NCBI GenBank assembly: GCA_964653005.1 | Contig: CAZZAN010000001.1 | Span: 237,898 to 301,897 of the forward strand | DNA length: 64,000 bases | Direction: 5' to 3' | DNA from: an uncultured Dehalococcoidia bacterium | GTDB taxonomy: Bacteria; Chloroflexota; Dehalococcoidia; UBA6926 | In this document: positions 10,395-61,484 of the stretch, piece by piece | How the letters are laid out: the number at the start of each line of letters is the position of its first letter | Position numbering within the stretch: position 1 is the stretch's first letter | Made by a program: the position numbers and the translations under genes | Notes under the pieces: model-generated | What the model saw: only the letters and a program-made list of their open reading frames with translations | Databases searched by the model: none | What the model was told of the DNA's origin: nothing

Positions 10395-10437
10395 AAGTCC
10401 CCCGCTCACCGTGCGGTGAGCGGGGGACTTCTTTTTT
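10395..10437 (+). terminator. Rho-independent terminator of the groESL operon
   Basis: aagtcccccgctcacc-gtgc-ggtgagcgggggactt forms a 16-bp perfect stem, followed by cTTTTTTg. Confidence 0.75.
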
Positions 10438-10492
10438 GCAGAGATTGGTTGTTTGGCCAAACCGCCTGTACCATCACTCAGGGGGTGAACTC

Positions 10493-11212
10493 ATGGGACA
10501 ACTTGATGGCAAGGTCTGCATCATAACCGGAGGGGGCAGGGGCATCGGAAAAGGGATTGCGCGCGCATTCGCCAAGGAAGGCGCGACGCTCGTCCTGGCT
10601 TCGCGGCAACTTGACACTCTCAATGAGACAGCCGAGGAGATGCGGGGCTATGGATCGCCAACCCTCGTGGTCCAGACGGATGTGACCAGCGAGGAGCAGA
10701 TCAAGAGCCTCTTTGAGACGACAATGGCGGAACACGGGCGAGTGGACATCCTGGTGAATAATTCCGGCGTGTTCGACGGCGGCCCCGTCGATGAACTCCC
10801 GTTGGAAACGTGGAATAAGGTCATCGCCATCAACCTCACCGCGGCTTTCATCTGCACGAGAGAGGCCATGAAGATCATGAAGCCGCAGGGCGGCGGACGG
10901 ATCATCAACATCGGCAGCATCTCGTCGAGTATCCCCAGGATGAACTCGGCCGCCTACGCAACCTCCAAGCACGGAATCATCGGCCTCACGAAGTCGACCG
11001 CGCTTGAGGGCAGGGACTTCGGCATCTCAGCGGGCGCGCTACACCCGGGAAGCGTCACCCTGGAGTGGCGCGGGCCTGAGGATCCGAACGCAACGATGTC
11101 GGTGGACGACATCGCCATCGGAGCATTGGCAATGGCGACGATGCCAGAGTATGCGACGATGCTTGACGCGACGGTTCTGCCCATCAGGCAGCCATTCCTG
11201 GGACGGGGGTAA
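10493..11212 (+). CDS. SDR-family oxidoreductase
   Basis: About 239 aa from ATG 10493 with a GGGGGTG RBS; the track's TTG start at 10436 lies inside the groEL terminator. ITGGGRGIGKG and YATSKHG motifs. Its last about 25 codons are duplicated at 14354-14430. Confidence 0.8.
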   Translation: MGQLDGKVCIITGGGRGIGKGIARAFAKEGATLVLASRQLDTLNETAEEMRGYGSPTLVVQTDVTSEEQIKSLFETTMAEHGRVDILVNNSGVFDGGPVDELPLETWNKVIAINLTAAFICTREAMKIMKPQGGGRIINIGSISSSIPRMNSAAYATSKHGIIGLTKSTALEGRDFGISAGALHPGSVTLEWRGPEDPNATMSVDDIAIGALAMATMPEYATMLDATVLPIRQPFLGRG

Positions 11213-11217
11213 CCCGG
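11141..11217 (+). repeat. Direct repeat, left copy (SDR 3' end, MPEYATMLDATVLPIRQPFLGRG*)
   Basis: 77 bp, with about 8 mismatches to 14354-14430. All mismatches fall at third codon positions and both copies encode the identical peptide. Confidence 0.85.
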
Positions 11218-11298
11218 CAGCCCCCCGAAGGCGGGGCGACCGTATACTAAAGTACTGACAGTAAGTCGAAGGGATCTGGTTCGGCATCGGAGGGGGAT

Positions 11299-12597
11299 AT
11301 GACAGCGGCCAAGCGGCCGAGGGTGGGTGCTATAGGATTGAGTTCCTCACAGCTGGATTCCATCAGGCCACTTTGCGGAATGCTTAGGCCAGCCGACTCA
11401 TTGGGCGATTATTGCGAGCTCTACAGTTGGACAGAAACGGACATCTTGGTAGCGTGTAATTTCGATTCTTGGGAGGATGAACCTTCCCCTCTTACCATCG
11501 ATCCTGATGTCAATATACTCGCCTTTAGTGAGTTTTATATCACATGGCCGGATAAGTACTCTACGAACAATTATGCTAACAATCACTACGCATCTACTAG
11601 CAGGAACACTGAGCGTGAACTGTCGGTTGCAGACGCTTGTCCGGATGTATATGAGCCACTTGCTGTTGATTTGATCAAGGAGTTAGCAAGAACTCAAAGC
11701 CTTCCTACAGTGATCGACACTTCCAGAAAGCGTTTTACATCGCTGGTTTCAACTACTTCAAACCAGCCTGTAGCCTTGTACATCGATTTGCCACCTCGAG
11801 CGGAGGGGCCTGACAGAGAACCAGTTCGAGCGTTCGCGCTCCTGCTCCCCAACGTTTCTAATCTCGCGGCCTGGTTCCGAGCCTTCCTTGCGGAGATTCA
11901 CGAAAGGAATCCTAGCCGGGTTCCACATGCCCCGCCTCGTTTGAGCAATCCATCAGATTGGTACACGCCTGAAGAAAGGGACCTAGCAGACCAAATCTCG
12001 GAAGTCAGCACGGAAATCACAGCCTTAACGGACAATCGTGACCGGCTTGAGGAACAACTGGCCATAAAGACGACAGAGGCCGACGCGGAGATTCGGAGCG
12101 CGCTCTGGGCCGACGGAGACGAACTGACCGCATCGGTCAAGGAGATTCTCTCCGGCCTAGGCTTTGTAGTCCGGGACATGGATACCGAATTGGATGAGGG
12201 GCAGCCTAAGCGCGAAGACTTGCGCCTGACACTTCCGGACAACTCTGCCTGGGAAGCCATTGTGGAAGTGAAGGGATATTCAGGCGGCACTAAGACGAGC
12301 GATGCCCGCCAAATTAGGGAGCACCGCGACCACTACACAGAGGAGAAAGGCCAGAAGCCTCATTTGACGTTGTGGCTGGCCAACGCACATCGCAACTATG
12401 CCCCTTCTGATAGACCTGCGCCGGATGGAAACGTCAAGGTGACCGCTGAGGTAGCCGGCATCGTTCACGCGCAAGTGCACGACCTACTTCGACAATGGTT
12501 GCTTGTTCAGGCGGGCAGTCTTGACGCAGCAATTGTCGTGAAAAGTCTGGTCGATGCCGAACCCGGACTCTGGACCCCACCAAAGCCTCCCGACTAG
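11299..12597 (+). CDS. Uncharacterised protein: unknown N-terminal domain, central coiled coil, C-terminal PD-x(n)-E-x-K nuclease-like motif
   Basis: 432 aa with a GGAGGGGG RBS. Shows a coiled-coil-like stretch (ERDLADQISEVSTEITALTDNRDRLEEQLAIKTTEADAEIRS), then LRLTLPDNSAWEAIVEVKGYSGGTK (PD...EVK). The gene is AT-shifted. Confidence 0.6.
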   Translation: MTAAKRPRVGAIGLSSSQLDSIRPLCGMLRPADSLGDYCELYSWTETDILVACNFDSWEDEPSPLTIDPDVNILAFSEFYITWPDKYSTNNYANNHYASTSRNTERELSVADACPDVYEPLAVDLIKELARTQSLPTVIDTSRKRFTSLVSTTSNQPVALYIDLPPRAEGPDREPVRAFALLLPNVSNLAAWFRAFLAEIHERNPSRVPHAPPRLSNPSDWYTPEERDLADQISEVSTEITALTDNRDRLEEQLAIKTTEADAEIRSALWADGDELTASVKEILSGLGFVVRDMDTELDEGQPKREDLRLTLPDNSAWEAIVEVKGYSGGTKTSDARQIREHRDHYTEEKGQKPHLTLWLANAHRNYAPSDRPAPDGNVKVTAEVAGIVHAQVHDLLRQWLLVQAGSLDAAIVVKSLVDAEPGLWTPPKPPD

Positions 12598-12818
12598 ACA
12601 TAGCGAGCCGCCTGATAAAGTATCGTGATGGGACAGAGAAGTCGGAGGCTTTTCCCAGTAGTGACGAACATGGCACCGGTCGCGTCCGCGAAAGTCGGGG
12701 CGCGAAAGCATCTATCCCAACGAGGTCGGCTCCGACGCAGGCACGAGCGATAAACACTCACATAACGCCGCCCGTGAAAACGACTAAACCTACTCCTGCT
12801 GACGGGGGATAACATCTT

Positions 12819-14303
12819 ATGAAGAGGGCGCTGTGGATAATCCTGATCCTTATTTTGACGCTGGTTGGTCTATGCACCGCGCTGACCGTTGCCTTACCTG
12901 TCCCTGAAGAATCGAATTCGACCGCAGAGCCATCTGAACAGACTCCTCGCGTAGCTGCACAAGTCCTTCATGCAGGACGAGCGGTTAACATGGAGGACTT
13001 TGGCCCGGGCCGCAAATATCCAAGTATCCAGATTTACGGCGAGGTCTGTGATGTAAACGAGTCGAACGCGCCTGAGTACGTGGAAGTATCCTTGTATGGA
13101 ATCATAAAGAGTCGCTACTCAGATTGGTGCATCAAATCAGTGACTTTAGGTGGGGCTTCAGAACTGAGTTCGGGGCTCGAGAAGGGCGATGCATTCGAAG
13201 CAATCTGTACTGGCACGATTTCAGAAGTCTCGGTTCATTTGCTGGTCAGGGAATGCAGTGCATTACCCGAGACAGGCAGACGTGATTCACCCGCACGAGC
13301 GCCAGCCGTGCCGATTTCGTCATCAAGGCTGGCCGATGCGGATTCAACAGAATATCTAAACCCTGAGCGGGTGGTAGAAGAGGTACGGGATACCGTCGTG
13401 CATATAAAGTCTGATTTTGGTAACTGGCCCGGTGTCATTTATGCTACAGAGGGTGTATCCGCGTTCATAGTCACAAATGCTCGCGCTGTTCTACAAGATA
13501 GCCAACTGTACGACACCGTCGAAGTTATGACCTATGACGGCACGTCTTATGGTGGTGCATTAATGATCTGGGATCAGGGCACTGACATTGCCATTATCGG
13601 TATCTGCTGTGGAGAGTTCGAGCCACTTGTATTTGGTGATGCATCCACGCTCGAGATTGGAAGAGAGGTCATCGCCGTTGGTCATCAGGGTCTCACGGAC
13701 ACATCGCTGAAATCGGTGCAGGGTGCAGTTACAGCACATGCCTTGGTGAGCGATGGCACCATCAATGTAATCCGCACTGATGCAATTGTAATTCCACAAA
13801 ATGATGGTGGGCTACTAATATCCCCGTTTGGCAAATTTCTCGGCATCAATACACCGGCGCTTTTCCCTTCGGAGGGCCTAGGATTTGCCGTCACAGAGAA
13901 GGCCATAAGAGAGTTCATCGACGGGTTCAGAACGGGCAATATACGTGTCCCACCCCCATCACCTACGTCTACAGCAACTCCCTTGATTGATGTCTGGGAC
14001 CTTTATGGCGAACATAGCGCCAATGCGATGAGGTTCGAGCGAGATCGAGCAGGAAAACGTGCCCAAATATATGGCCTCGTCTGCAGAATCGACGATAGTG
14101 CTCTTTATTTGTACGCGGATTCAGACAGCCTTCTTGTCGAATCTTGCGCTCATAGGGCGGTTGTCGTAGTTGGTTTAGCCGAAAACTTGTTACTGGAGTT
14201 ATCAGCCGGGGATACGTTTGTGGCGACTTGCCACGTGGCTGGATTTATAGATCAATCTGGTCTGCTTACAGACCATATGTATGTGGCGGGCTGCACCTCC
14301 TAG
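12819..14303 (+). CDS. Membrane-anchored trypsin-fold (HtrA/S1-like) protein whose catalytic His and Ser appear substituted (probable pseudo-protease), flanked by two homologous small domains
   Basis: 494 aa with an N-terminal TM (MKRALWIILILILTLVGLCTALTVAL). S1 motifs are present but altered: TNARAV where TN(A/N)HVV is expected, DIAIIGI, GREVIAVGHQG, IRTDAIVIPQNDGGLL where GNSGGPL is expected, GKFLGINT, GLGFAV. An N-terminal segment (QIYGEVCDVNES...GDAFEAICTG...HLLVRECS) and a C-terminal segment (QIYGLVCRIDDS...GDTFVATCHV...HMYVAGCTS) are visibly related to each other. Confidence 0.6.
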   Translation: MKRALWIILILILTLVGLCTALTVALPVPEESNSTAEPSEQTPRVAAQVLHAGRAVNMEDFGPGRKYPSIQIYGEVCDVNESNAPEYVEVSLYGIIKSRYSDWCIKSVTLGGASELSSGLEKGDAFEAICTGTISEVSVHLLVRECSALPETGRRDSPARAPAVPISSSRLADADSTEYLNPERVVEEVRDTVVHIKSDFGNWPGVIYATEGVSAFIVTNARAVLQDSQLYDTVEVMTYDGTSYGGALMIWDQGTDIAIIGICCGEFEPLVFGDASTLEIGREVIAVGHQGLTDTSLKSVQGAVTAHALVSDGTINVIRTDAIVIPQNDGGLLISPFGKFLGINTPALFPSEGLGFAVTEKAIREFIDGFRTGNIRVPPPSPTSTATPLIDVWDLYGEHSANAMRFERDRAGKRAQIYGLVCRIDDSALYLYADSDSLLVESCAHRAVVVVGLAENLLLELSAGDTFVATCHVAGFIDQSGLLTDHMYVAGCTS

Positions 14304-14353
14304 ACGATACTTTCAGCCTGGACGATGTATGGCGCTGAGATTCTAGGGCTGTG

Positions 14354-14430
14354 ATGCCGGAGTACGCCACCATGCTTGATGCGACGGTTCTGCCCATCAG
14401 GCAGCCGTTCCTGGGGCGCGGTTAACCCGG
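14354..14430 (+). repeat. Direct repeat, right copy (orphan SDR 3' end)
   Basis: It encodes the same 23-aa peptide plus stop as 11141-11217, with synonymous-only differences. It is not attached to any upstream reading frame. Confidence 0.85.
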
Positions 14431-14432
14431 GG

Positions 14433-15455
14433 TCACGCCGTCATTCTGAGGCTTGGGACGGCGTCAAGTCCTCCGTCATCGGGCTGAGCGCCGTGTTCAA
14501 TGACGAACGCGGCGCGGGCGGCGATCATGACACCGTTGTCCGTGCAGAGTCCGGGGCGAGGCCGCCATACGGGCATGTCCGCCTTGCGCAGGACCTCCTC
14601 GCCGAGGGCGCTGTTTGCCGCGACGCCGCCGGACAACATGACCGACTTCGCTTTCGTAGCACGCGCGACCTCCAACAGGCGGTCCGCCAGGCCCGTGACA
14701 GCGGTCTGCTGAAAGCCTGCGGCGATATTGGCGACGTCTTCCTGGGTCAGCGCGTCCGTCCCGCCTCGTTCGTTCACCACGCGGAGCACTGCCGTCTTGA
14801 GGCCGCTGAAACTGAAATCCCATGAGTCCCTGATCAGCGGGCTGGGAAAGCGGACAGGGTCGGTCGCCTCACGAGCGACGCGTTCGATGATCGGGCCACC
14901 CGGGTAGCCGAGGCCAAGCAGCCGCGCCACCTTGTCGAACGCCTCACCCGCGGCATCGTCTCTCGTCTCGCTCAGCAGCCGGTAGTTCCCGTGCTCCTCC
15001 ACCCGCACGATGTCCGTATGGCCGCCGGAGACGATGAGCGCCACGGATGGCAGCAGCGGGTCGCCCCGCTCCTCACTGTCCCACTGCCCGTCCACGATCC
15101 AGTTCGCATAGACGTGTCCCTCAAGATGGTGAACACCGTACAGCGGCAGGTCCCACGCCATCGCGAGCGCCTTGGCGAAATTGACACCCACCAATAGGGA
15201 GCCTGCCAGTCCCGGGCCGTACGTCACGGCGATGGCGTCGAGATTGAGGTCTCCGTCATGTCGCTCCATGACGTCACGCAGGAGCGTGGGAAACGTCAGC
15301 AGGTGTTGGCGTGACGCGATCTCCGGAACCACACCGCCGAATCGCGCATGGATATCCGCCTGCGATGACAGGCCATGGACGATGACCCGACGCCCGTCCT
15401 CAACGATGGCGATGCCCGTCTCATCGCAAGATGATTCGATACCAAGAATTCTCAT
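14433..15455 (-). CDS. tsaD: tRNA N6-adenosine threonylcarbamoyltransferase TsaD (Kae1/Gcp)
   Basis: 340 aa. MRILGIESSCDETGIAIV...HHLEGH... Confidence 0.9.
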   Translation of the reverse strand: MRILGIESSCDETGIAIVEDGRRVIVHGLSSQADIHARFGGVVPEIASRQHLLTFPTLLRDVMERHDGDLNLDAIAVTYGPGLAGSLLVGVNFAKALAMAWDLPLYGVHHLEGHVYANWIVDGQWDSEERGDPLLPSVALIVSGGHTDIVRVEEHGNYRLLSETRDDAAGEAFDKVARLLGLGYPGGPIIERVAREATDPVRFPSPLIRDSWDFSFSGLKTAVLRVVNERGGTDALTQEDVANIAAGFQQTAVTGLADRLLEVARATKAKSVMLSGGVAANSALGEEVLRKADMPVWRPRPGLCTDNGVMIAARAAFVIEHGAQPDDGGLDAVPSLRMTA

Positions 15456-17582: not shown

Positions 17583-18641
17583 GTGGAAGACATCAAGCTA
17601 TGGGAACTAGCCGTAACTGAGGCCAAGCCTTTGGGTTCGAATAAGAAGTGGGAGTCCGAGAAGTCATTTGAAGATACTCTCGTCGAGAACCCGGAACTGC
17701 TGCTCGACGGCCTGACACTGGTGGGGCGGCAGACTCCAACCGAAGGCGGACGAGCGCTTGATCTGCTAGGTGTAGATTCGTACGGCAAGCTGGTCGTGTT
17801 CGAGTTGAAGCGCGATACGCTGTCGCGTGAGGCCGTCGCGCAAATCATCGATTACGCATCCTTTCTCGACAATCTGGATCTCAATGCCCTGGCCGAGCAC
17901 ATTTCGGAAAAGTCAGGCGCTCACGGAATTGCTAAAATCGATAACTTTCAAGAGTGGTACAGCAGCGAGGGTTTTGGCGAATTGGAGTCGTTGAAGCCGT
18001 TGCGGATGTTCCTGGTCGGTCTCGGAGCAGATGACCGCACGGAGCGCATGGTAAGGTTCCTCGCCCAGAACAGCGGGATGGATATCTCGATGCTGACCTT
18101 TCACGCGTTCGACTACGACGGCAAGACTATCCTTGCCAAGCAAGTGGAGGTGGAAGCAGACGCCGAACCCGAGCGGCGCTCCACAAGGCGACGTCCGTCT
18201 CAGGAGGAGTTCAACCAGCGTTTCGATGAGAAAAGGGCAGACTTTGGAGTCGGTAATCTCATCGATGACGTTCGCCGCATGTTCAGAGAGAATTGGCCAT
18301 CATCGACAGAACGCGCAGACACCTGGGGCATCAATTTCCAACTTCAGCCAAATCGTAGGCGCTATGCACGCTATGCGCGCATTGATCCCTGGCGAAAGGA
18401 AACAATAAGCATCGTATTCTTTGACCGCGCCAAGACATTGTGCCCGGATGAGTTCAGAGGACCCTTAGAGAAGATTAGCTATGTAACGTATCCGCGAAAT
18501 CGCGACCCGCTGGGAGACCCTAAGGCAGAGATTCAGTTCCACCTGACCCCGCAGGAGTGGGAAACCCACAAAGAGAGCTTGACCGCTCTCGCGCAAGCCG
18601 TCTACGCAGCATGGCAGAATAATGGGGCGGAATCGGACTAA
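17583..18641 (+). CDS. NucS/DUF91-like PD-(D/E)xK nuclease-domain protein
   Basis: About 352 aa from GTG 17583, with a GGAGGG RBS 5 nt upstream. LVGRQTPTEGGRALDLLGVDSYGKLVVFELKR matches the NucS-C/DUF91 core (GR..DLL..D..G.LVV.ELKR). GC is moderately below the neighbours. The track's start at 17400 overlaps corC. Confidence 0.6.
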   Translation: MEDIKLWELAVTEAKPLGSNKKWESEKSFEDTLVENPELLLDGLTLVGRQTPTEGGRALDLLGVDSYGKLVVFELKRDTLSREAVAQIIDYASFLDNLDLNALAEHISEKSGAHGIAKIDNFQEWYSSEGFGELESLKPLRMFLVGLGADDRTERMVRFLAQNSGMDISMLTFHAFDYDGKTILAKQVEVEADAEPERRSTRRRPSQEEFNQRFDEKRADFGVGNLIDDVRRMFRENWPSSTERADTWGINFQLQPNRRRYARYARIDPWRKETISIVFFDRAKTLCPDEFRGPLEKISYVTYPRNRDPLGDPKAEIQFHLTPQEWETHKESLTALAQAVYAAWQNNGAESD

Positions 18642-19290: not shown

Positions 19291-20406
19291 ATGACGCCGA
19301 TCAACCGGCCGGCAGGGTCGGAACTCGTTGGCAGTGTCCACAACGCGCTGGTGTCCGGCGGTTTCCTGGGACGAGGCGCGCGTCTCCTCGTGGGTGTGTC
19401 CGGCGGGCCGGACTCAACTGCGTTACTGGCGGGCCTCGTCGAATTGCGGGACGACTGCCGGCTTGAGCTACATGTCGTCCACGTGGATCACGGCTTGCGC
19501 CCTGAGTCGCGGGGTGACGCGGAGTACGTGAGGCGTCTATGTGCCCGGTGGAATGTGCCCCTTAACGTGACGCGGGCGAATGTTAAAGAGCTTCGCCGGA
19601 CGGAGAAGCTGTCCGTTGAGGAGGCGGCACGCAAGGCACGCCATCACGCGCTGCTGGAAGAAGCCGCCGCATACAAGGCTGACGCCATCGCGCTTGGGCA
19701 CACGGCGGATGACCAGATCGAAACCGTGTTGCTGAGCCTGTTGCGCGGGGCGGGTCTGCGAGGCTTGGCGGGTATGACAGAGCAGTCGGAATCGCCGTTT
19801 ACGCTGCCCACCGGAGAGCGCGTGCCGATTCTCCGCCCCCTGCTTGCTGTAACGCGGGCAGACGTCATCGGCTATCTGAAAGACCGACGGCTGCGGCCCC
19901 GGCAGGACGCATCCAACGCGGATCCGGAGCATCTCCGGAATCGGGTGCGGCACGAGCTGCTGCCGCTGATGGAGCGCATCCGTGGGGGCGCGTCAGACGC
20001 CGTTGGGCGGGCATCAGAGGATGCGCGGCTGGCACTGGAGTACGTGGAGTCACAGGCGGACGGACTCTGGGGGGAGGCGTGCGAGATTGCGGCAGACCGG
20101 CAGTCGGTTCGCATCAACCGCGGAGCGATGCGCGGCGCGCACGCGGCGCTGCGGCACATTGTCGTTGAGCGGGCGATTATTGCGCTGCTGCGTTCGACAG
20201 AGGGGTTCAGCCGCAGAAACTACCGTGACATGGACGCGATGATCACAACGGGCCGCACCCGCTCGGAGATCGATCTGCCGAAAGGGCTGCGCCTTGCCTG
20301 CGGGGACAAACACAAGGCGGTATTGTCCATCGGCGCGCGTGTCAGGCGGCCGCATCAGGGTGTCATTGGAGAAGACTCGACGGTAAAGGGTACTATTGAG
20401 GCATGA
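19291..20406 (+). CDS. tilS: tRNA(Ile)-lysidine synthetase
   Basis: 371 aa. PP-loop LLVGVSGGPDSTAL. Confidence 0.85.
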   Translation: MTPINRPAGSELVGSVHNALVSGGFLGRGARLLVGVSGGPDSTALLAGLVELRDDCRLELHVVHVDHGLRPESRGDAEYVRRLCARWNVPLNVTRANVKELRRTEKLSVEEAARKARHHALLEEAAAYKADAIALGHTADDQIETVLLSLLRGAGLRGLAGMTEQSESPFTLPTGERVPILRPLLAVTRADVIGYLKDRRLRPRQDASNADPEHLRNRVRHELLPLMERIRGGASDAVGRASEDARLALEYVESQADGLWGEACEIAADRQSVRINRGAMRGAHAALRHIVVERAIIALLRSTEGFSRRNYRDMDAMITTGRTRSEIDLPKGLRLACGDKHKAVLSIGARVRRPHQGVIGEDSTVKGTIEA

Positions 20407-20732
20407 GCAGACGACGCAATCAAACTCCGGGGCCGGGTCGGGGCGGTGGGCGCGATGGACGTGCCGGGCGCGGCGGTCAGCCAAATGTGGGCGGCAATCG
20501 AGCGGAGCGGCGGTCATTCCTGGAGCGGATTCGAGTGCGCGAGGATGTTGCGGCAGACGCGCCCGCGGGAATGCGGCGAGGACAGCAGCGCGGCAACAAC
20601 AGGTCGCGCAGCCGCGGCCAAGGCTGGACGTTCGGCCGCATATTCGTCCTGTCCGTCATGGCATTTCTTGCCCTCGCCCTCGCGCTCAGCGGCCTGATCG
20701 CGTTCCTTCCGCCACCCGGCACGGCCAGCTAG
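20403..20732 (+). CDS. Hypothetical small Arg/Gly-rich protein with a C-terminal TM helix
   Basis: 109 aa. The ATGA overlap with the tilS stop suggests translational coupling. Its last about 15 codons are duplicated downstream with synonymous-only differences, which supports a real coding region. Confidence 0.4.
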   Translation: MSRRRNQTPGPGRGGGRDGRAGRGGQPNVGGNRAERRSFLERIRVREDVAADAPAGMRRGQQRGNNRSRSRGQGWTFGRIFVLSVMAFLALALALSGLIAFLPPPGTAS

Positions 20733-20736
20733 CGCG
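20688..20736 (+). repeat. Direct repeat, left copy (3' end of small ORF, ...SGLIAFLPPPGTAS*)
   Basis: 48-49 bp with 2 mismatches to 21542-21589, both synonymous (ctt ccg cca versus ctg ccc cca). Confidence 0.8.
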
Positions 20737-20737
20737 G

Positions 20738-20772
20738 TTGACAATATAGAACATCTGTATTATTCTCTCCCT
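20738..20772 (+). promoter_or_regulatory. Candidate sigma70-like promoter for the Gp37/Gp68 gene
   Basis: TTGACA at 20738-20743 followed 14-17 nt later by TATTAT/TATTCT, in an AT-rich stretch immediately after the repeat. Confidence 0.35.
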
Positions 20773-20801
20773 CGCGACGGGAGTGAGTGAGGGGGCGCGG
20801 C

Positions 20802-21551
20802 GTGGCATCGACTATTGAGTGGACGGATGAGACGTGGAATCCCGTCACGGGCTGCTCACGGGTCTCGCCGGGCTGCGACAACTGCTACATGTTCGCGCTG
20901 TACCCGAGGCTGCACGCGATGGGTGTGCCGGGCTACGAGGCATCGGCGGACACCGTCACGATGCTGCCGGAGCGCCTCAACGCACCGTTGACGTGGGCCA
21001 AGCCGCGTCGGGTGTTCGTCAATAGCATGTCCGACCTGTTCCATCCCAAGGTGCCGTTTGAGTTCATCTCCCAGGTTTTCGACGTGATGCGCCAAGCGGA
21101 TCAACACATCTTCCAGGTGCTGACCAAGCGACCCGGCAAGGCGGCAGCGTGGTGGGAGAAGTGCGGCAAGCACGAGTTCGCCGACTGGCCACCCAACGTG
21201 TGGATTGGGACATCGGTGGAGAACCAGAAGTACGCGCCGCGCCTGACAGTGTTGGGTCGGATACCCGCCAGGATTCGATTCGTTTCTGCAGAACCTCTTC
21301 TAGACAAATTGGATCTAAGGCCTTGGTTGCGGGATGGCACACTGCACTGGGTAATCACCGGCGGTGAGAGCGGGCCTCGGGCGCGTCCGATGGAGGAGGC
21401 GTGGGCGGTCGCTCTCATGAGGCAATGCCTCGCGGAAGGCGTGGACTTCTTCTTCAAGCAATGGGGCGGCCGGCGAGGGAAGCGCAGCGGGGAAGAAGCC
21501 ATCTTGGCCGGCAGGACGTGGCAGGAGATGCCGGCGGCGCTAGCGGCCTGA
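20802..21551 (+). CDS. Phage Gp37/Gp68 family protein (DUF5131)
   Basis: About 249 aa from GTG 20802 with a GAGGGGG RBS. TIEWTDETWNPVTGCSRVSPGCDNCY is the family's N-terminal three-Cys signature. Confidence 0.75.
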   Translation: MASTIEWTDETWNPVTGCSRVSPGCDNCYMFALYPRLHAMGVPGYEASADTVTMLPERLNAPLTWAKPRRVFVNSMSDLFHPKVPFEFISQVFDVMRQADQHIFQVLTKRPGKAAAWWEKCGKHEFADWPPNVWIGTSVENQKYAPRLTVLGRIPARIRFVSAEPLLDKLDLRPWLRDGTLHWVITGGESGPRARPMEEAWAVALMRQCLAEGVDFFFKQWGGRRGKRSGEEAILAGRTWQEMPAALAA

Positions 21552-21589
21552 TCGCGTTCCTGCCCCCACCCGGCACGGCCAGCTAGCGC
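21542..21589 (+). repeat. Direct repeat, right copy
   Basis: Matches 20688-20736. It overlaps the stop codon of the Gp37/Gp68 gene. Confidence 0.8.
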
Positions 21590-21621
21590 AGCTCGGTACT
21601 GCCCAGTAGCCTCAGTCCCCC

Positions 21622-22350
21622 TCACCCCACCCGTGGCCTGCCTTTGAAGCGGAGGCGGGCGAGGCCTTTGATGTCTTCCCAAGCGGTGGAGATGATCTTG
21701 ACCCTTGTGTCCGGGTCTTCTTCCCATGCGACGGGGAAATCGGCGATGGGGTAGCGGTTCTTCTCGGCGAGGAGCAGCAGTTCTGTGTCGAAAAACCAGG
21801 CGTTGTCCTTGATGAGCGGCAGGAGATTGTCCGCGGCGCGGCGGCTGATGGCCTTGAAGCCGCATTGCGCGTCCGAGAACCCGCTCCAGAACACCGACTT
21901 AATCATCAGGTTGTAGGAGCGCGAGACGAACTCGCGCTTGAATGAGCGCGTGGTCTGGGCGCCGCGCTTGAGGCGGGAGCCCGTCGCCACGTCATGGCCG
22001 TCCCTGACCGCGCCGAGCAGATCCGGGATGCGGTCGATGTCCGTCGAAAGGTCCACGTCCATGTAGGCGCGGATATCGGCGTCGCTCTCGCTCCACGCCC
22101 GCTTGAGCGCCCCGCCGCGTCCCTTCTGCTCAAGATGGACGACGCCGACCTCGCCCTCGTATTGCGCCGCCAACCCGTTCGCCACCTCAAGCGTGCCGTC
22201 CACAGAGCCGTTGTCGGCAATGACAACGCGCCAACGGTAATCGGCCAGGTTTTCGCGGCAGTACGGCAGCAGGCGTTCGAGGCACACGGGCAGCGAGTGT
22301 TCCTCGTTGTAGACGGGGATAACGATGTCGGCCGAGGGGGAGTCCGTCAC
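21622..22350 (-). CDS. Family 2 glycosyltransferase (dolichol-phosphate mannosyltransferase-like)
   Basis: 242 aa. IVIPVYNEE...DADLS... GT2 motifs. Confidence 0.8.
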   Translation of the reverse strand: MTDSPSADIVIPVYNEEHSLPVCLERLLPYCRENLADYRWRVVIADNGSVDGTLEVANGLAAQYEGEVGVVHLEQKGRGGALKRAWSESDADIRAYMDVDLSTDIDRIPDLLGAVRDGHDVATGSRLKRGAQTTRSFKREFVSRSYNLMIKSVFWSGFSDAQCGFKAISRRAADNLLPLIKDNAWFFDTELLLLAEKNRYPIADFPVAWEEDPDTRVKIISTAWEDIKGLARLRFKGRPRVG

Positions 22351-26482: not shown

Positions 26483-26770
26483 TTAGGCCGTTCCGGCGTG
26501 GAGACGGAGACCAAGGACCTTGATGATGGCGAGGACGGTGGAGAGGTCCAAGGACGATTCGACCTTCTTCTCAAGGTCCAAGGCTTCAGGGGGTAACCCG
26601 GCGTCCAGCGCCTCTTTTTCCATACCTTTTGACCGAGCGATGTGGCCCAAGATTCCGATGAGGGTCTGGGGGTGATCCTCGTCAAGAGCAGCCTCGAGAA
26701 AATCTGCCCTGTCTTCATCTGTAACGAGATCTGTAGCTGGGTCCCAAAGTCGGAGAGCTACACGTGCCAT
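26483..26770 (-). CDS. Addiction-module antidote protein (HigA-family-like antitoxin)
   Basis: About 95 aa from ATG 26770, with a 4-nt overlap onto the toxin stop. ...DFLEAALDEDHPQTLIGILGHIARSKGM...LSTVLAIIKVLGLRL matches the antidote family pattern. Confidence 0.7.
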   Translation of the reverse strand: MARVALRLWDPATDLVTDEDRADFLEAALDEDHPQTLIGILGHIARSKGMEKEALDAGLPPEALDLEKKVESSLDLSTVLAIIKVLGLRLHAGTA

Positions 26771-27096
26771 CACAGATCCTCCCATTCGGCACTTTCGCGT
26801 GCGATGGCTCGCGCGCTGCGGATGTCCGCATCCTGCGTACTTTTGTCACCACCGACGAGGAGTATTATCACAGCTGTTCCTCGCCTGATGAAGTATAGCC
26901 GGTAGCCTTGTCCATAGTGAATCCGAATTTCGGACACTCCCCCGCCAACTGCCCTGACATCGCCGGGATTCCCGTTGCGGAGACGCTCAATCCTCGCGTT
27001 GATGCGCCGTTTGGCTCGTCCATCACGCAGCCCCTCATACCATCGATCATAGACAGCCGTTGTAACGACTCGAATCTGCGGTCTATTCTCCTGCAA
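26770..27096 (-). CDS. Addiction-module killer protein (RelE/ParE-HigB-like toxin)
   Basis: 108 aa. ...RIERLRNGNPGDVRAVGGGVSEIRIHYGQGYRLYF...ILLVGGDKSTQ matches the killer-protein family pattern. Confidence 0.75.
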   Translation of the reverse strand: MQENRPQIRVVTTAVYDRWYEGLRDGRAKRRINARIERLRNGNPGDVRAVGGGVSEIRIHYGQGYRLYFIRRGTAVIILLVGGDKSTQDADIRSARAIARESAEWEDL

Positions 27097-60446: not shown

Positions 60447-60615
60447 CTACTCCTACCCCTTTTTATGTGGCTTACCCTTTGGGTGCAACAAACGCAGCGC
60501 CTCGTTCGCTCCTTGTCTCGTTCGGGCCTTTACCCTGCGCTCAGGTGGCGCATTGATACGGGTGTGGCCGTGGACGTTGGAGGCGAACCGACGCTGCAAA
60601 GTGATTATAGCAGTC

Positions 60616-60665
60616 AGTGCATTCCCGTGCCGTAGTATGTTACAACTCAGAGCAGTGTCTTCGCC
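60616..60665 (+). repeat. Conserved about 50-nt leader element, copy 1 (upstream of the first DUF1330 gene)
   Basis: agtgcattcccgtgccgtagtatgttacaactcagagcagtgtcttcg. Copy 2 at 61104-61153 differs at 3 positions. Confidence 0.6.
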
Positions 60666-60730
60666 TGGGCCCGAAGGCCGCCTGCCAGTAGCACACTGAC
60701 GAAACACACTCAGACAAGGAGAGGTAGGTC

Positions 60731-61018
60731 ATGTCTGCCTATTTGATAGCCGATGTAGAGATTACGGATGAAAGTCTCTATGCGCAGTTTCGTGAACGGA
60801 TGACGCCTACTCTCGAAGCCTATAGCGGTAGGTTCATCGCGCGTGGCGGCGAGATTGCGGTCATCGATGGTTCCTGGAATCCCAAGCGTCTAGCCATCGT
60901 GGCATTTGACAGCATGGAGCAAGCACGTTCATGGTTGGCCTCGCCGGAATTCAAAGAGCTCGATGGTATGCGCAACAGTTCTTCCAACATCAATCTGGTG
61001 CTTGTCGAAGGCGTTTAG
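60731..61018 (+). CDS. DUF1330 family protein
   Basis: 95 aa. MSAYLIADVEITDESLYAQFRE... Confidence 0.7.
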   Translation: MSAYLIADVEITDESLYAQFRERMTPTLEAYSGRFIARGGEIAVIDGSWNPKRLAIVAFDSMEQARSWLASPEFKELDGMRNSSSNINLVLVEGV

Positions 61019-61103
61019 CGGCATCAGCCACAGCCCGTACCAACACCATATGCCCGCTGACGGCATTGTGATGACAGTGCCCGTGGCAATCGTTTAATCG
61101 GTG

Positions 61104-61153
61104 AGTGCATTCCCGTGCCGCAGTGTGTTACAACTCAGGGCAGTGTCTTCGGG
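61104..61153 (+). repeat. Conserved leader element, copy 2
   Basis: Near-identical to 60616-60665. Confidence 0.6.
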
Positions 61154-61196
61154 CGCCACTCCGACCAAGAACGTCCGGGCAAGGAGGAACTAAACC

Positions 61197-61484
61197 ATGT
61201 CTGCCTACTTGATAACCGATGTTGAGGTTACGGATGAAGAACTATACGCGCAGTTTCGTGAACGGATGACACCTGCCATCGAATCCTACGGCGGGAAGTT
61301 CATTGAGCGTGGCGGCGCGATAGAGATCGTCGACGGTTCCTGGACGCCCACTCGGCTCGCCATCGTGGAATTCGCCAGCATGGAGCAGGCCCATGCATGG
61401 CTGGACTCGGCTGAAAACCATGCCCTCGATGAGATTCGGACCAAGTCTTCCAGGATCAACATGGTGCTTGTCGAGGGCGTCTAG
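61197..61484 (+). CDS. DUF1330 family protein (tandem paralogue)
   Basis: 95 aa, about 70% identical to the upstream copy. Confidence 0.7.
   Translation: MSAYLITDVEVTDEELYAQFRERMTPAIESYGGKFIERGGAIEIVDGSWTPTRLAIVEFASMEQAHAWLDSAENHALDEIRTKSSRINMVLVEGV

Follow-up and report, generated by a model that had tools for sequence, protein, structure and literature searches.

The 64-kb window examined here, which is the whole stretch of DNA under study, belongs to a metagenome-assembled genome of an uncultured Dehalococcoidia bacterium. Between a small gene, referred to as small109, and the convergent gene for a family-2 glycosyltransferase (GT2), the window carries a DUF5131 (Gp37/Gp68) gene that is flanked by two copies of the small109 3' end (Table 1). 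These copies form a direct repeat of 48 nt, identical at 46 of 48 positions and recovered by self-blastn with E = 4e-15; the first is the end of the functional gene, the second an orphan. When a gap of 1 nt is allowed, their similarity continues 5 nt further to the left (GCGCT[C]AGCGG). Both differences between them, CTT/CTG and CCG/CCC, lie in third codon positions and are silent, which at this locus alone is not significant (two of two silent, P about 0.075). Outside the repeat the sequences are unrelated, and no longer tandem duplication was found around it; between the copies lie a promoter-like site and the intact DUF5131 gene. In these respects the first-pass annotation, which had reported a duplicated gene end beside a Gp37/Gp68 gene with silent-only differences and had named a longer tandem duplication as a refuting observation, described the locus correctly, the silence of the differences being consistent with the claim here and significant at a second site treated below.

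Relatives were collected by a one-genome-per-species scan with the TilS-like protein, which yielded ten Dehalococcoidia genomes, all of them metagenome-assembled, with 76-92% aa identity in TilS and 80-99% in most other core genes. They share the gene order GroEL - dehydrogenase - TsaD - ... - TilS - small109 - GT2 - PurH. Although small109 has no match in Pfam or NCBIfam, its reading frame is judged to be a real gene because it is present in all ten relatives (81-94% aa identity), because its start overlaps the stop codon of the TilS-like gene (ATGA) and because the differences among relatives at its 3' end are confined to third codon positions.

The gap between small109 and GT2 occurs in two states. 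It is empty in four of the ten relatives (L003, L007, L009 and L010), with a spacer of about 35-45 nt between the convergent stop codons. In the remaining six (L001, L002, L004, L005, L006 and L008) it is filled by a cassette composed of the same promoter directly after the small109 stop, the DUF5131 gene and a partner gene whose stop abuts that of GT2. A duplicated small109 end was present in none of the six filled relatives, nor in two further filled contigs, L093 and L094. The amino acid identity of DUF5131 to the window's protein declines roughly in parallel with that of TilS from the same genomes (DUF5131/TilS: L002, 93%/91%; L001, 93%/92%; L004, 86%/87%; L006, 84%/83%; L005, 82%/84%; L008, 80%/83%). 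Because the cassette occupies the same position in the relatives and its divergence follows that of TilS, it is an old syntenic resident of the clade, subject to occasional loss or replacement, and not a recent arrival in the window genome. At first pass, a syntenic and inherited Gp37/Gp68 gene had been named as an observation that would speak against a recurrent insertion mechanism, and this is largely what the relatives carry, with DUF5131 at the same place in six of ten genomes and on the two contigs.

A second C-terminal variant of small109 (...GFVGVLSQGGGPTS versus ...GLIAFLPPPGTAS) was observed at L003:1117-1449, L004:11113-11445 and L094:504-836. It accompanies an empty site (L003) and filled sites (L004, L094) alike, and the small109 3' end and the state of the islet have therefore been reshuffled by recombination more than once in the clade.

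The partner gene encodes TcmP (TIGR04474, E = 4e-52 to 8e-57) in L001, L004 and L008, and in L006 a protein of similar size with a weak Pfam match; the partner scan covered the filled relatives other than L005. At the site equivalent to 21552-21621 of the window, three loci carry a fusion of an N6_N4 DNA methylase with an HNH nuclease instead (L002:12266-13678, L093:1686-3098 and L094:1660-2894), which in L094 is split into two open reading frames (ORFs). This partner sits with the DUF5131 proteins closest to that of the window (93-94% aa identity in L002, L093 and L094). A fixed DUF5131 gene and promoter combined with an exchangeable partner hint at DNA as the target of the pair, in a role akin to modification or restriction.

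The window's DUF5131 protein matches PF07505 over model positions 2-243 of 243 (E = 1.1e-89; 300.5 bits, cut-off 28.9) and phrog_2045 with E = 5e-88. An N-terminal three-cysteine motif, C18-x6-C25-x2-C28 (GCSRVSPGCDNCY), is invariant in 15 close homologues. DUF5131 has been listed as a subgroup of the radical SAM superfamily (PMC9477430), and both the family assignment and the cysteine motif place the protein in that subgroup. In PADLOC, it matches PDC-M41B (PDLC04639; E = 1e-90), the B component of the candidate pair PDC-M41/M30, and the TcmP proteins of the relatives match the A component, PDC-M41A (E = 1e-80). No gene for this component lies between the DUF5131 stop (21551) and the GT2 stop (21622), and tblastn with the TcmP proteins of L001 and L008 found none in the whole 64-kb window, in agreement with the absence of TcmP remarked upon earlier. 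PDC-M41 is thus incomplete in the window. Equipped with its own promoter and lacking its partner, DUF5131 probably represents an incomplete, inactive defence or DNA-modification module, in which the gene would be a remnant even though it is intact.

The promoter-like site that forms the left border of the cassette is sigma-70-like, with 10 of 12 matches where 0.2 were expected by chance (shuffles), and is conserved in all filled relatives; the motif TTGACAtTATAGAAC...TGT(A/T)TTAT is kept in L001, L002, L004, L005, L006, L008, L091 and L094. The TTGACA element proposed at first pass was retained, whereas TATTAT was discarded as the -10 hexamer, its spacer being only 14 nt, in favour of TATTCT at 17 nt. 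The same promoter (20744-20766 of the window; L001, L002, L004, L005, L006 and L008) holds an imperfect palindrome, TAGAAC-N4-TGT(A/T)TTAT, that overlaps the spacer and the -10 region and that we take to resemble the GAAC-N4-GTTC LexA box of Gram-positive bacteria and Dehalococcoides. Given this LexA-like palindrome, the DUF5131 cassette might be damage-inducible.

Comparison with the two allele types indicated that the locus is composite. The window follows the relatives' DUF5131 genes up to ...GAGATGCCGG (about position 21535), where similarity ends, and follows small109 from AGCGGCCTGATC... rightward. Behind the orphan stop codon it reads CGCAGCTCGGTACTGCCCAGTAGCCTCAGTCCCCC, which can be aligned to the spacer between small109 and GT2 in L003, an empty relative (CGCAGCTCGGCACCGCCTGGTAGCCCCAATCC); the spacer at this place has no counterpart in any filled relative. 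The left side of the joint (promoter and DUF5131) is therefore of the filled type and the right side (orphan end and L003-type spacer) of the empty type, so that the locus reads as a filled-type left half and an empty-type right half with the partner missing. An unequal crossover within one genome, producing a tandem duplication, was rejected, since the second copy leads into an empty-type spacer and not into a second promoter and DUF5131 gene.

At the joint itself, the patch GCGCTAGCGGCCTGA resembles both the native 3' end of DUF5131, CCGCTAGCCGCGTAA (L093, L002), and small109, GCGCTCAGCGGCCTGA, and this double resemblance explains the apparent 1-nt gap relative to small109. The likeness to both inferred parents spans 3 to about 10 nt, depending on the parent, the true parents not being among the alleles found. 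The DUF5131 stop codon (TGA, 21549-21551) falls within the second repeat copy; the gene is complete, save that the joint provides its final codons and stop. As a result, the protein ends in ...EMPAALAA* in the window and in ...EMPLAA* or ...EMPVAV* in the relatives, with the entire Pfam domain kept.

This arrangement was recovered from independent sources. Positions 20600-21700 are 100% identical over their full length in five Logan loci from four separate runs and are partly carried by three further run assemblies, positions 11000-14600 are 100% identical in another contig, and the DUF5131 protein is also recorded from a 458-kb NCBI contig. In all, the same haplotype was assembled from at least seven sequencing runs. 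The hybrid structure is not an assembly artefact. Exact look-up of the 254-aa product of the longest ORF (20787-21551) returned no record, since public gene calls start at the GTG at 20802; look-ups with the neighbouring GT2 and small109 proteins led to the public assemblies.

Table 1. Positions of the features described at the DUF5131 locus and at the dehydrogenase/TsaD site, in window coordinates.
Feature	Position	Strand	Description
small109	20403..20732	+	109 aa; Arg/Gly-rich N-terminus, hydrophobic C-terminal tail; intact copy of the end-duplicated gene
48-nt repeat, copy 1	20688..20735	+	Last 14 codons, stop and 3 nt of functional small109 (...SGLIAFLPPPGTAS*)
Promoter-like site	20738..20766	+	TTGACA-17 nt-TATTCT; directly after the small109 stop; left border of the cassette
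DUF5131 (Gp37/Gp68) gene	20802..21551	+	249 aa from GTG, start as in public assemblies
Joint GCGCTAGCGGCCTGA	21537..21551	+	Patch in the last DUF5131 codons resembling both parents
48-nt repeat, copy 2	21542..21589	+	Orphan small109 3' end (14 codons, stop, 3 nt) without the 5' part of the gene
Spacer, empty-allele type (AGCTCGGTACTGCCCAGTAGCCTCAGTCCCCC)	21590..21621	+	Between the orphan end and the GT2 stop
GT2 gene	21622..22350	-	Conserved right flank of the islet; PF00535, E = 1e-27; syntenic in all relatives
78-nt repeat, copy 1	11140..11217	+	End of the short-chain dehydrogenase gene (10436-11212): last 23 codons, stop, 5 nt
Cargo of the 78-nt case	11218..14352	+	Low G+C, about 51% vs 64%
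ins1A	11299-12597		Predicted GATase-like N-terminal domain and FokI-like PD-(D/E)xK nuclease
ins1B	12819-14303		Trypsin/HtrA-like protease-domain protein (Pfam/NCBIfam)
78-nt repeat, copy 2	14353..14430	+	Orphan dehydrogenase 3' end, TsaD stop directly after

A second case of this kind, already pointed out at first pass as lying within 10 kb, is found about 9 kb upstream, where the 3' end of a short-chain dehydrogenase gene is duplicated on both sides of a cargo inserted before TsaD. The repeat measures 78 nt and contains nine differences, all of them silent and in third positions. With 26% of the possible changes being silent, nine of nine has a probability of about 5e-6 under neutral drift. 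At both sites, silent-only divergence implies that one copy of the gene end derives from another functional allele, and so from another strain. The orphan dehydrogenase end continues into TAACCCGGGGTCACGCCGTCATTCTGAGG, which is the empty-site junction with the convergent TsaD stop in L005-L008 and L010. No orphan dehydrogenase end was seen in the relatives. The parent allele of the cargo was not found, so the comparison of joints was limited to the DUF5131 locus. Like the DUF5131 locus, it is most likely a recombination scar, here at another islet.

The first cargo gene, ins1A, has no match in Pfam, NCBIfam, PHROG or PADLOC. In its AlphaFold model (predicted local distance difference test score, pLDDT, 88.5), an N-terminal domain of GATase1-like fold is seen together with a long helix and a FokI-like PD-(D/E)xK nuclease domain that has a conserved D...EVK, and Foldseek matched the model to FokI (1fok, E = 5e-5). 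The family has 375 matches of about 428 aa at about 50-56% identity. The possibility of ins1A being a hidden recombinase was ruled out on these grounds, the model and the Foldseek match pointing to a FokI-like nuclease with a GATase-like domain. In L092, ins1A occurs without the trypsin/HtrA-like neighbour, so that the pairing of the two cargo genes is not fixed.

The gap between the dehydrogenase gene and TsaD is a hotspot whose cargo differs by species (L001:2767-6205, L002:2016-5176, L004:2182-5161 and L009:1-5175, corresponding to 11213-14432 of the window); others have no cargo there. DNA methylase-Mrr_cat fusions are found in L001 and L002, and a homologue of ins1A together with a 502-aa leucine-rich-repeat protein in L009. 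These islets of the relatives are bordered and interspersed by short repeats resembling repetitive extragenic palindromic (REP) sequences or miniature inverted-repeat transposable elements (MITEs), among them an inverted pair of 67 nt in L001 and a direct one of 52 nt in L002, and not by gene-end duplications. A near-perfect palindrome of 36 nt (94% self-complementary) lies at 10395-10430, between groEL and the dehydrogenase gene, and is kept at the same place in L004, L006, L008 and L010; it is probably the groEL terminator.

Taken together, these observations make it likely that the DUF5131 locus is a hybrid between a filled and an empty allele of a small variable islet, joined by one illegitimate crossover of the microhomology type. 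To arise, such a product would need a homologous crossover in one of the flanks as well as an illegitimate joint, and three routes would supply both. In the first, an empty recipient would acquire the promoter and DUF5131 of a filled donor by homology-facilitated illegitimate recombination (HFIR), with the illegitimate joint placed 45 nt upstream of the recipient's small109 stop. In the second, also by HFIR, DNA of an empty strain would enter a filled recipient, anchored in GT2/PurH and joined at the end of DUF5131, so that the partner gene would be deleted. In the third, a donor fragment of 854 bp would circularise at a microhomology and then integrate by a single crossover within the 48-nt homology. 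The three routes give the same product and are indistinguishable on the present data; the repeat, the hybrid make-up, the place of the joint, the missing partner, the lack of mobility genes and the haplotype itself are observed, and the route and the direction of the exchange are inferred. Direction is left undecided because no parent allele closer than 94% was found in the searched collections and the relatives are too distant for tract mapping: in a sliding-window comparison of positions 8.7-30.5 kb, identity to all ten relatives was 85-95%.

The parameters of such events have been described. HFIR joints form at microhomologies of 3-10 bp, and single crossovers of shortened circular molecules have produced duplications of the homologous segment of 109-950 bp in E. 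coli (PMC3240628). HFIR has also been invoked for the orphaned 3' ends that displacement leaves at type VI secretion system (T6SS) and Rhs loci (PMC5361080). A hybrid origin would also account for the particular form of the scars. Only silent differences would be expected because the two copies are the ends of working alleles from different strains, the orphan being too young to have decayed. Gene 3' ends would be involved because the islets begin 3-8 nt past a stop codon, where a sloppy joint placed slightly upstream hits the gene end, and the left copy would be intact because only products that keep the conserved gene whole survive. A single event making both scars was considered and rejected, as each scar requires an illegitimate joint of its own.

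Several points weigh against recombination between filled and empty alleles. Neither parent was recovered, the database searches having returned only more distant filled and empty alleles. On the filled side, a homologue search and a 90% cluster listing gave at best a DUF5131 protein of 94% identity, all of them with native C-termini; on the empty side, a degenerate 28-nt pattern of the orphan and spacer had no match in the JGI metagenome contigs, a collection from which the clade seems to be absent. With neither parent found, the precise joint and the direction of exchange can only be inferred. Classical HFIR, moreover, usually deletes recipient DNA instead of duplicating it, and for the insertion route the joint would therefore have to fall upstream of where the homologous anchor ends. 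One genome has two scars within 10 kb as against none in about 13 filled islets of the ten relatives, an uneven distribution for which there is no explanation beyond chance or recent turnover. That the joint leaves the reading frame of DUF5131 whole may also be a sign of selection or of a less random process. Finally, we know of no work on DNA uptake in this uncultured lineage.

Among the alternatives, site-specific integration of a mobile element at the 3' ends of coding sequences (CDSs), with a replacement end supplied by the element much as the attP sites of phages and islands restore tRNA or gene ends, fares best, yet it is unlikely; the first-pass annotation had proposed it in the form of a recurrent insertion mechanism carrying its own copy of the target. 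The recombinase of such an element would have to be encoded elsewhere or be DUF5131 itself. Direct repeats containing a gene 3' end around foreign-looking DNA give the classical attL/attR picture, the G+C content of the first insert is clearly foreign, there are two cases in one genome, and both copies in each pair encode the same peptide. However, neither insert contains an integrase, any other recombinase or a transposase, as judged from Pfam, NCBIfam, PHROGs and PADLOC and, for ins1A, from the model, although one acting in trans is possible; terminal inverted repeats or insertion sequence (IS)-like ends were lacking at both, and DUF5131 is classed in the radical SAM superfamily (PMC9477430), not with the recombinases. 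The two repeats share no sequence, and at 48 and 78 nt and with internal differences they are unlike the short, identical target-site duplication of a transposon. Cassettes at the same site in the six filled relatives and in L093 and L094 have no flanking repeats, the orphan is contiguous with an empty-type spacer, and the right end of the supposed element would cut a conserved two-gene unit exactly after the first gene, leaving the partner behind. On this evidence the proposed targeting mechanism finds no support. A scan of the whole window against Rfam gave no match.

Homing-like spread, in which an islet-borne nuclease, either the HNH domain of the fused partner or the FokI-like ins1A, would cut the empty allele near a gene 3' end and repair would copy the islet from a filled allele, is less probable still. 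The silent differences would then shield the filled allele from cutting, and the duplication would be a by-product of imprecise repair. This would fit the nuclease domains in the alternative partner and in ins1A, the occurrence of silent-only differences exactly beside the islet and the patchy presence and absence across relatives. Homing normally leaves no duplication, though, and the DUF5131 insert of the window is devoid of any nuclease gene; ordinary divergence of alleles under purifying selection would produce silent differences just as well, and the relatives differ at like positions. In addition, the divergence of DUF5131 parallels that of the flanks, against frequent lateral spread, and methylase-nuclease fusions are typical restriction-modification enzymes. 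An extended form of this idea, which we regard as equally improbable, would see in the scars no accidents but side products of an active exchange of tiny defence islets that nucleases trigger in genomes poor in mobile elements: the islet nucleases (HNH, FokI-like) or a recombinase acting in trans would break the empty allele in the 3' end of the adjacent gene, and repair would copy the islet together with a silently recoded, immune gene end. If true, this exchange would amount to a homing-like spread of defence genes without transposases or integrases.

It is very improbable that the duplication dates from the first entry of the cassette into the clade and was kept only in the lineage of the window, which later lost the partner. 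The cassette is old in the clade, which makes an original insertion scar conceivable, but an untranslated orphan as old as the clade, where the flanks are 75-92% identical, should have decayed, and this one retains 96% identity and shows neither a replacement change nor an indel. Neither the orphan nor the empty-type spacer occurs in any of the six other filled alleles, so that repeated identical losses would be needed, and the orphan abuts DUF5131, not the partner gene. A chimera of reads from a filled and an empty strain, formed during metagenome assembly or binning, is hardly credible even for a metagenome-assembled genome and with both allele types evidently circulating in related populations, given that separate assemblies from several runs and the NCBI record agree at 100% identity over the 1.1-kb region and that the sequence shared at the joint, at most 10-15 nt, is too short to mislead a k-mer assembler.

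Further features were noted elsewhere in the window. A gene with a NucS_C-like nuclease domain lies between a CNNM transporter and a histidine phosphatase (17583-18641, longest ORF from 17400). It is variable, has a lower G+C content of 54-57%, matches the PADLOC single-gene candidate PDC-S11 (E = 5e-36), is absent from L001, L008 and L010 and is 57-76% identical in the other relatives; no duplicated flank was found at this islet. On the minus strand, positions 26483-27096 hold a toxin-antitoxin-like pair consisting of a Gp49/DUF891-type toxin and an HI1420-type antidote, which L008 alone of the ten relatives shares, at about 77% nt identity. The region is thus dotted with tiny variable islets in an otherwise conserved synteny. 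Two tandem DUF1330 genes of 95 aa (60731-61018 and 61197-61484, within region 60613-61484) share about 80% nt identity. Each is preceded by an element of 51 nt (60613-60663 and 61101-61151) that is 92% identical between the two, and so better conserved than the genes; it has no Rfam match and is possibly a shared promoter or leader.

If recombination between filled and empty alleles is the correct reading, what looked like a new element targeting gene ends would be explained by ordinary exchange between two states of small islets. The kind of event is already known, and the window adds a new instance. The locus would then be a natural example of how defence-type genes are gained, lost and broken in small genomes of uncultured Dehalococcoidia: exchange would proceed through conserved flanks, at sites that contain no mobile-element genes, and an occasional untidy joint would leave an orphan gene end. 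Within the clade, the place and promoter of DUF5131 are constant, and the partner is TcmP, a DNA methylase-HNH fusion or absent altogether; this variation points to a DNA-modification or restriction-like role of the pair and marks the copy in the window as a probable remnant.

The closest known counterparts are HFIR and the single-crossover integration of circularised fragments, which have been described in Streptococcus pneumoniae, Acinetobacter baylyi, Pseudomonas stutzeri and E. coli (PMC3240628). The locus shares with HFIR one homologous end, one illegitimate joint, which may lie at a short microhomology, and the lack of dedicated mobility genes, and with the single-crossover variant a direct duplication of the homologous segment on both sides of the inserted DNA, an architecture exactly as in the window. 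The known events were obtained in the laboratory with selectable markers, whereas those in the window are deduced from natural haplotypes of an uncultured bacterium, and the homology used by the circle route would here be only 48-78 nt. A comparable displacement is described for the effector-immunity loci of Rhs, contact-dependent inhibition (CDI) and T6SS systems (PMC5361080), where a resident gene end is shifted downstream and orphaned by an incoming module that brings a 3' part of its own, and where HFIR was the mechanism proposed. There, however, the toxin tips and immunity genes encoded by the displaced ends are different, and variation is the point; in the window both ends specify one and the same peptide, and the orphan looks like a by-product devoid of function.

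The candidate system PDC-M41 (DUF5131 and TcmP, related to PDC-M30) is represented by its B component, and the cassette resembles it in being a variable islet among defence-like islets. It differs in that the A component is missing from the window and that the closest relatives carry a DNA methylase-HNH fusion instead of TcmP; the PDC systems are themselves candidate defence systems without tested function. Islands and prophages that insert into gene or tRNA 3' ends and are bounded by attL and attR also show direct repeats derived from a gene 3' end, with the insert side supplying the replacement end that keeps the gene intact. In contrast to these, the window contains no integrase, the repeats at its two sites are unrelated, the cassettes of the relatives are free of repeats, and the right end of the insert lies inside a two-gene unit.

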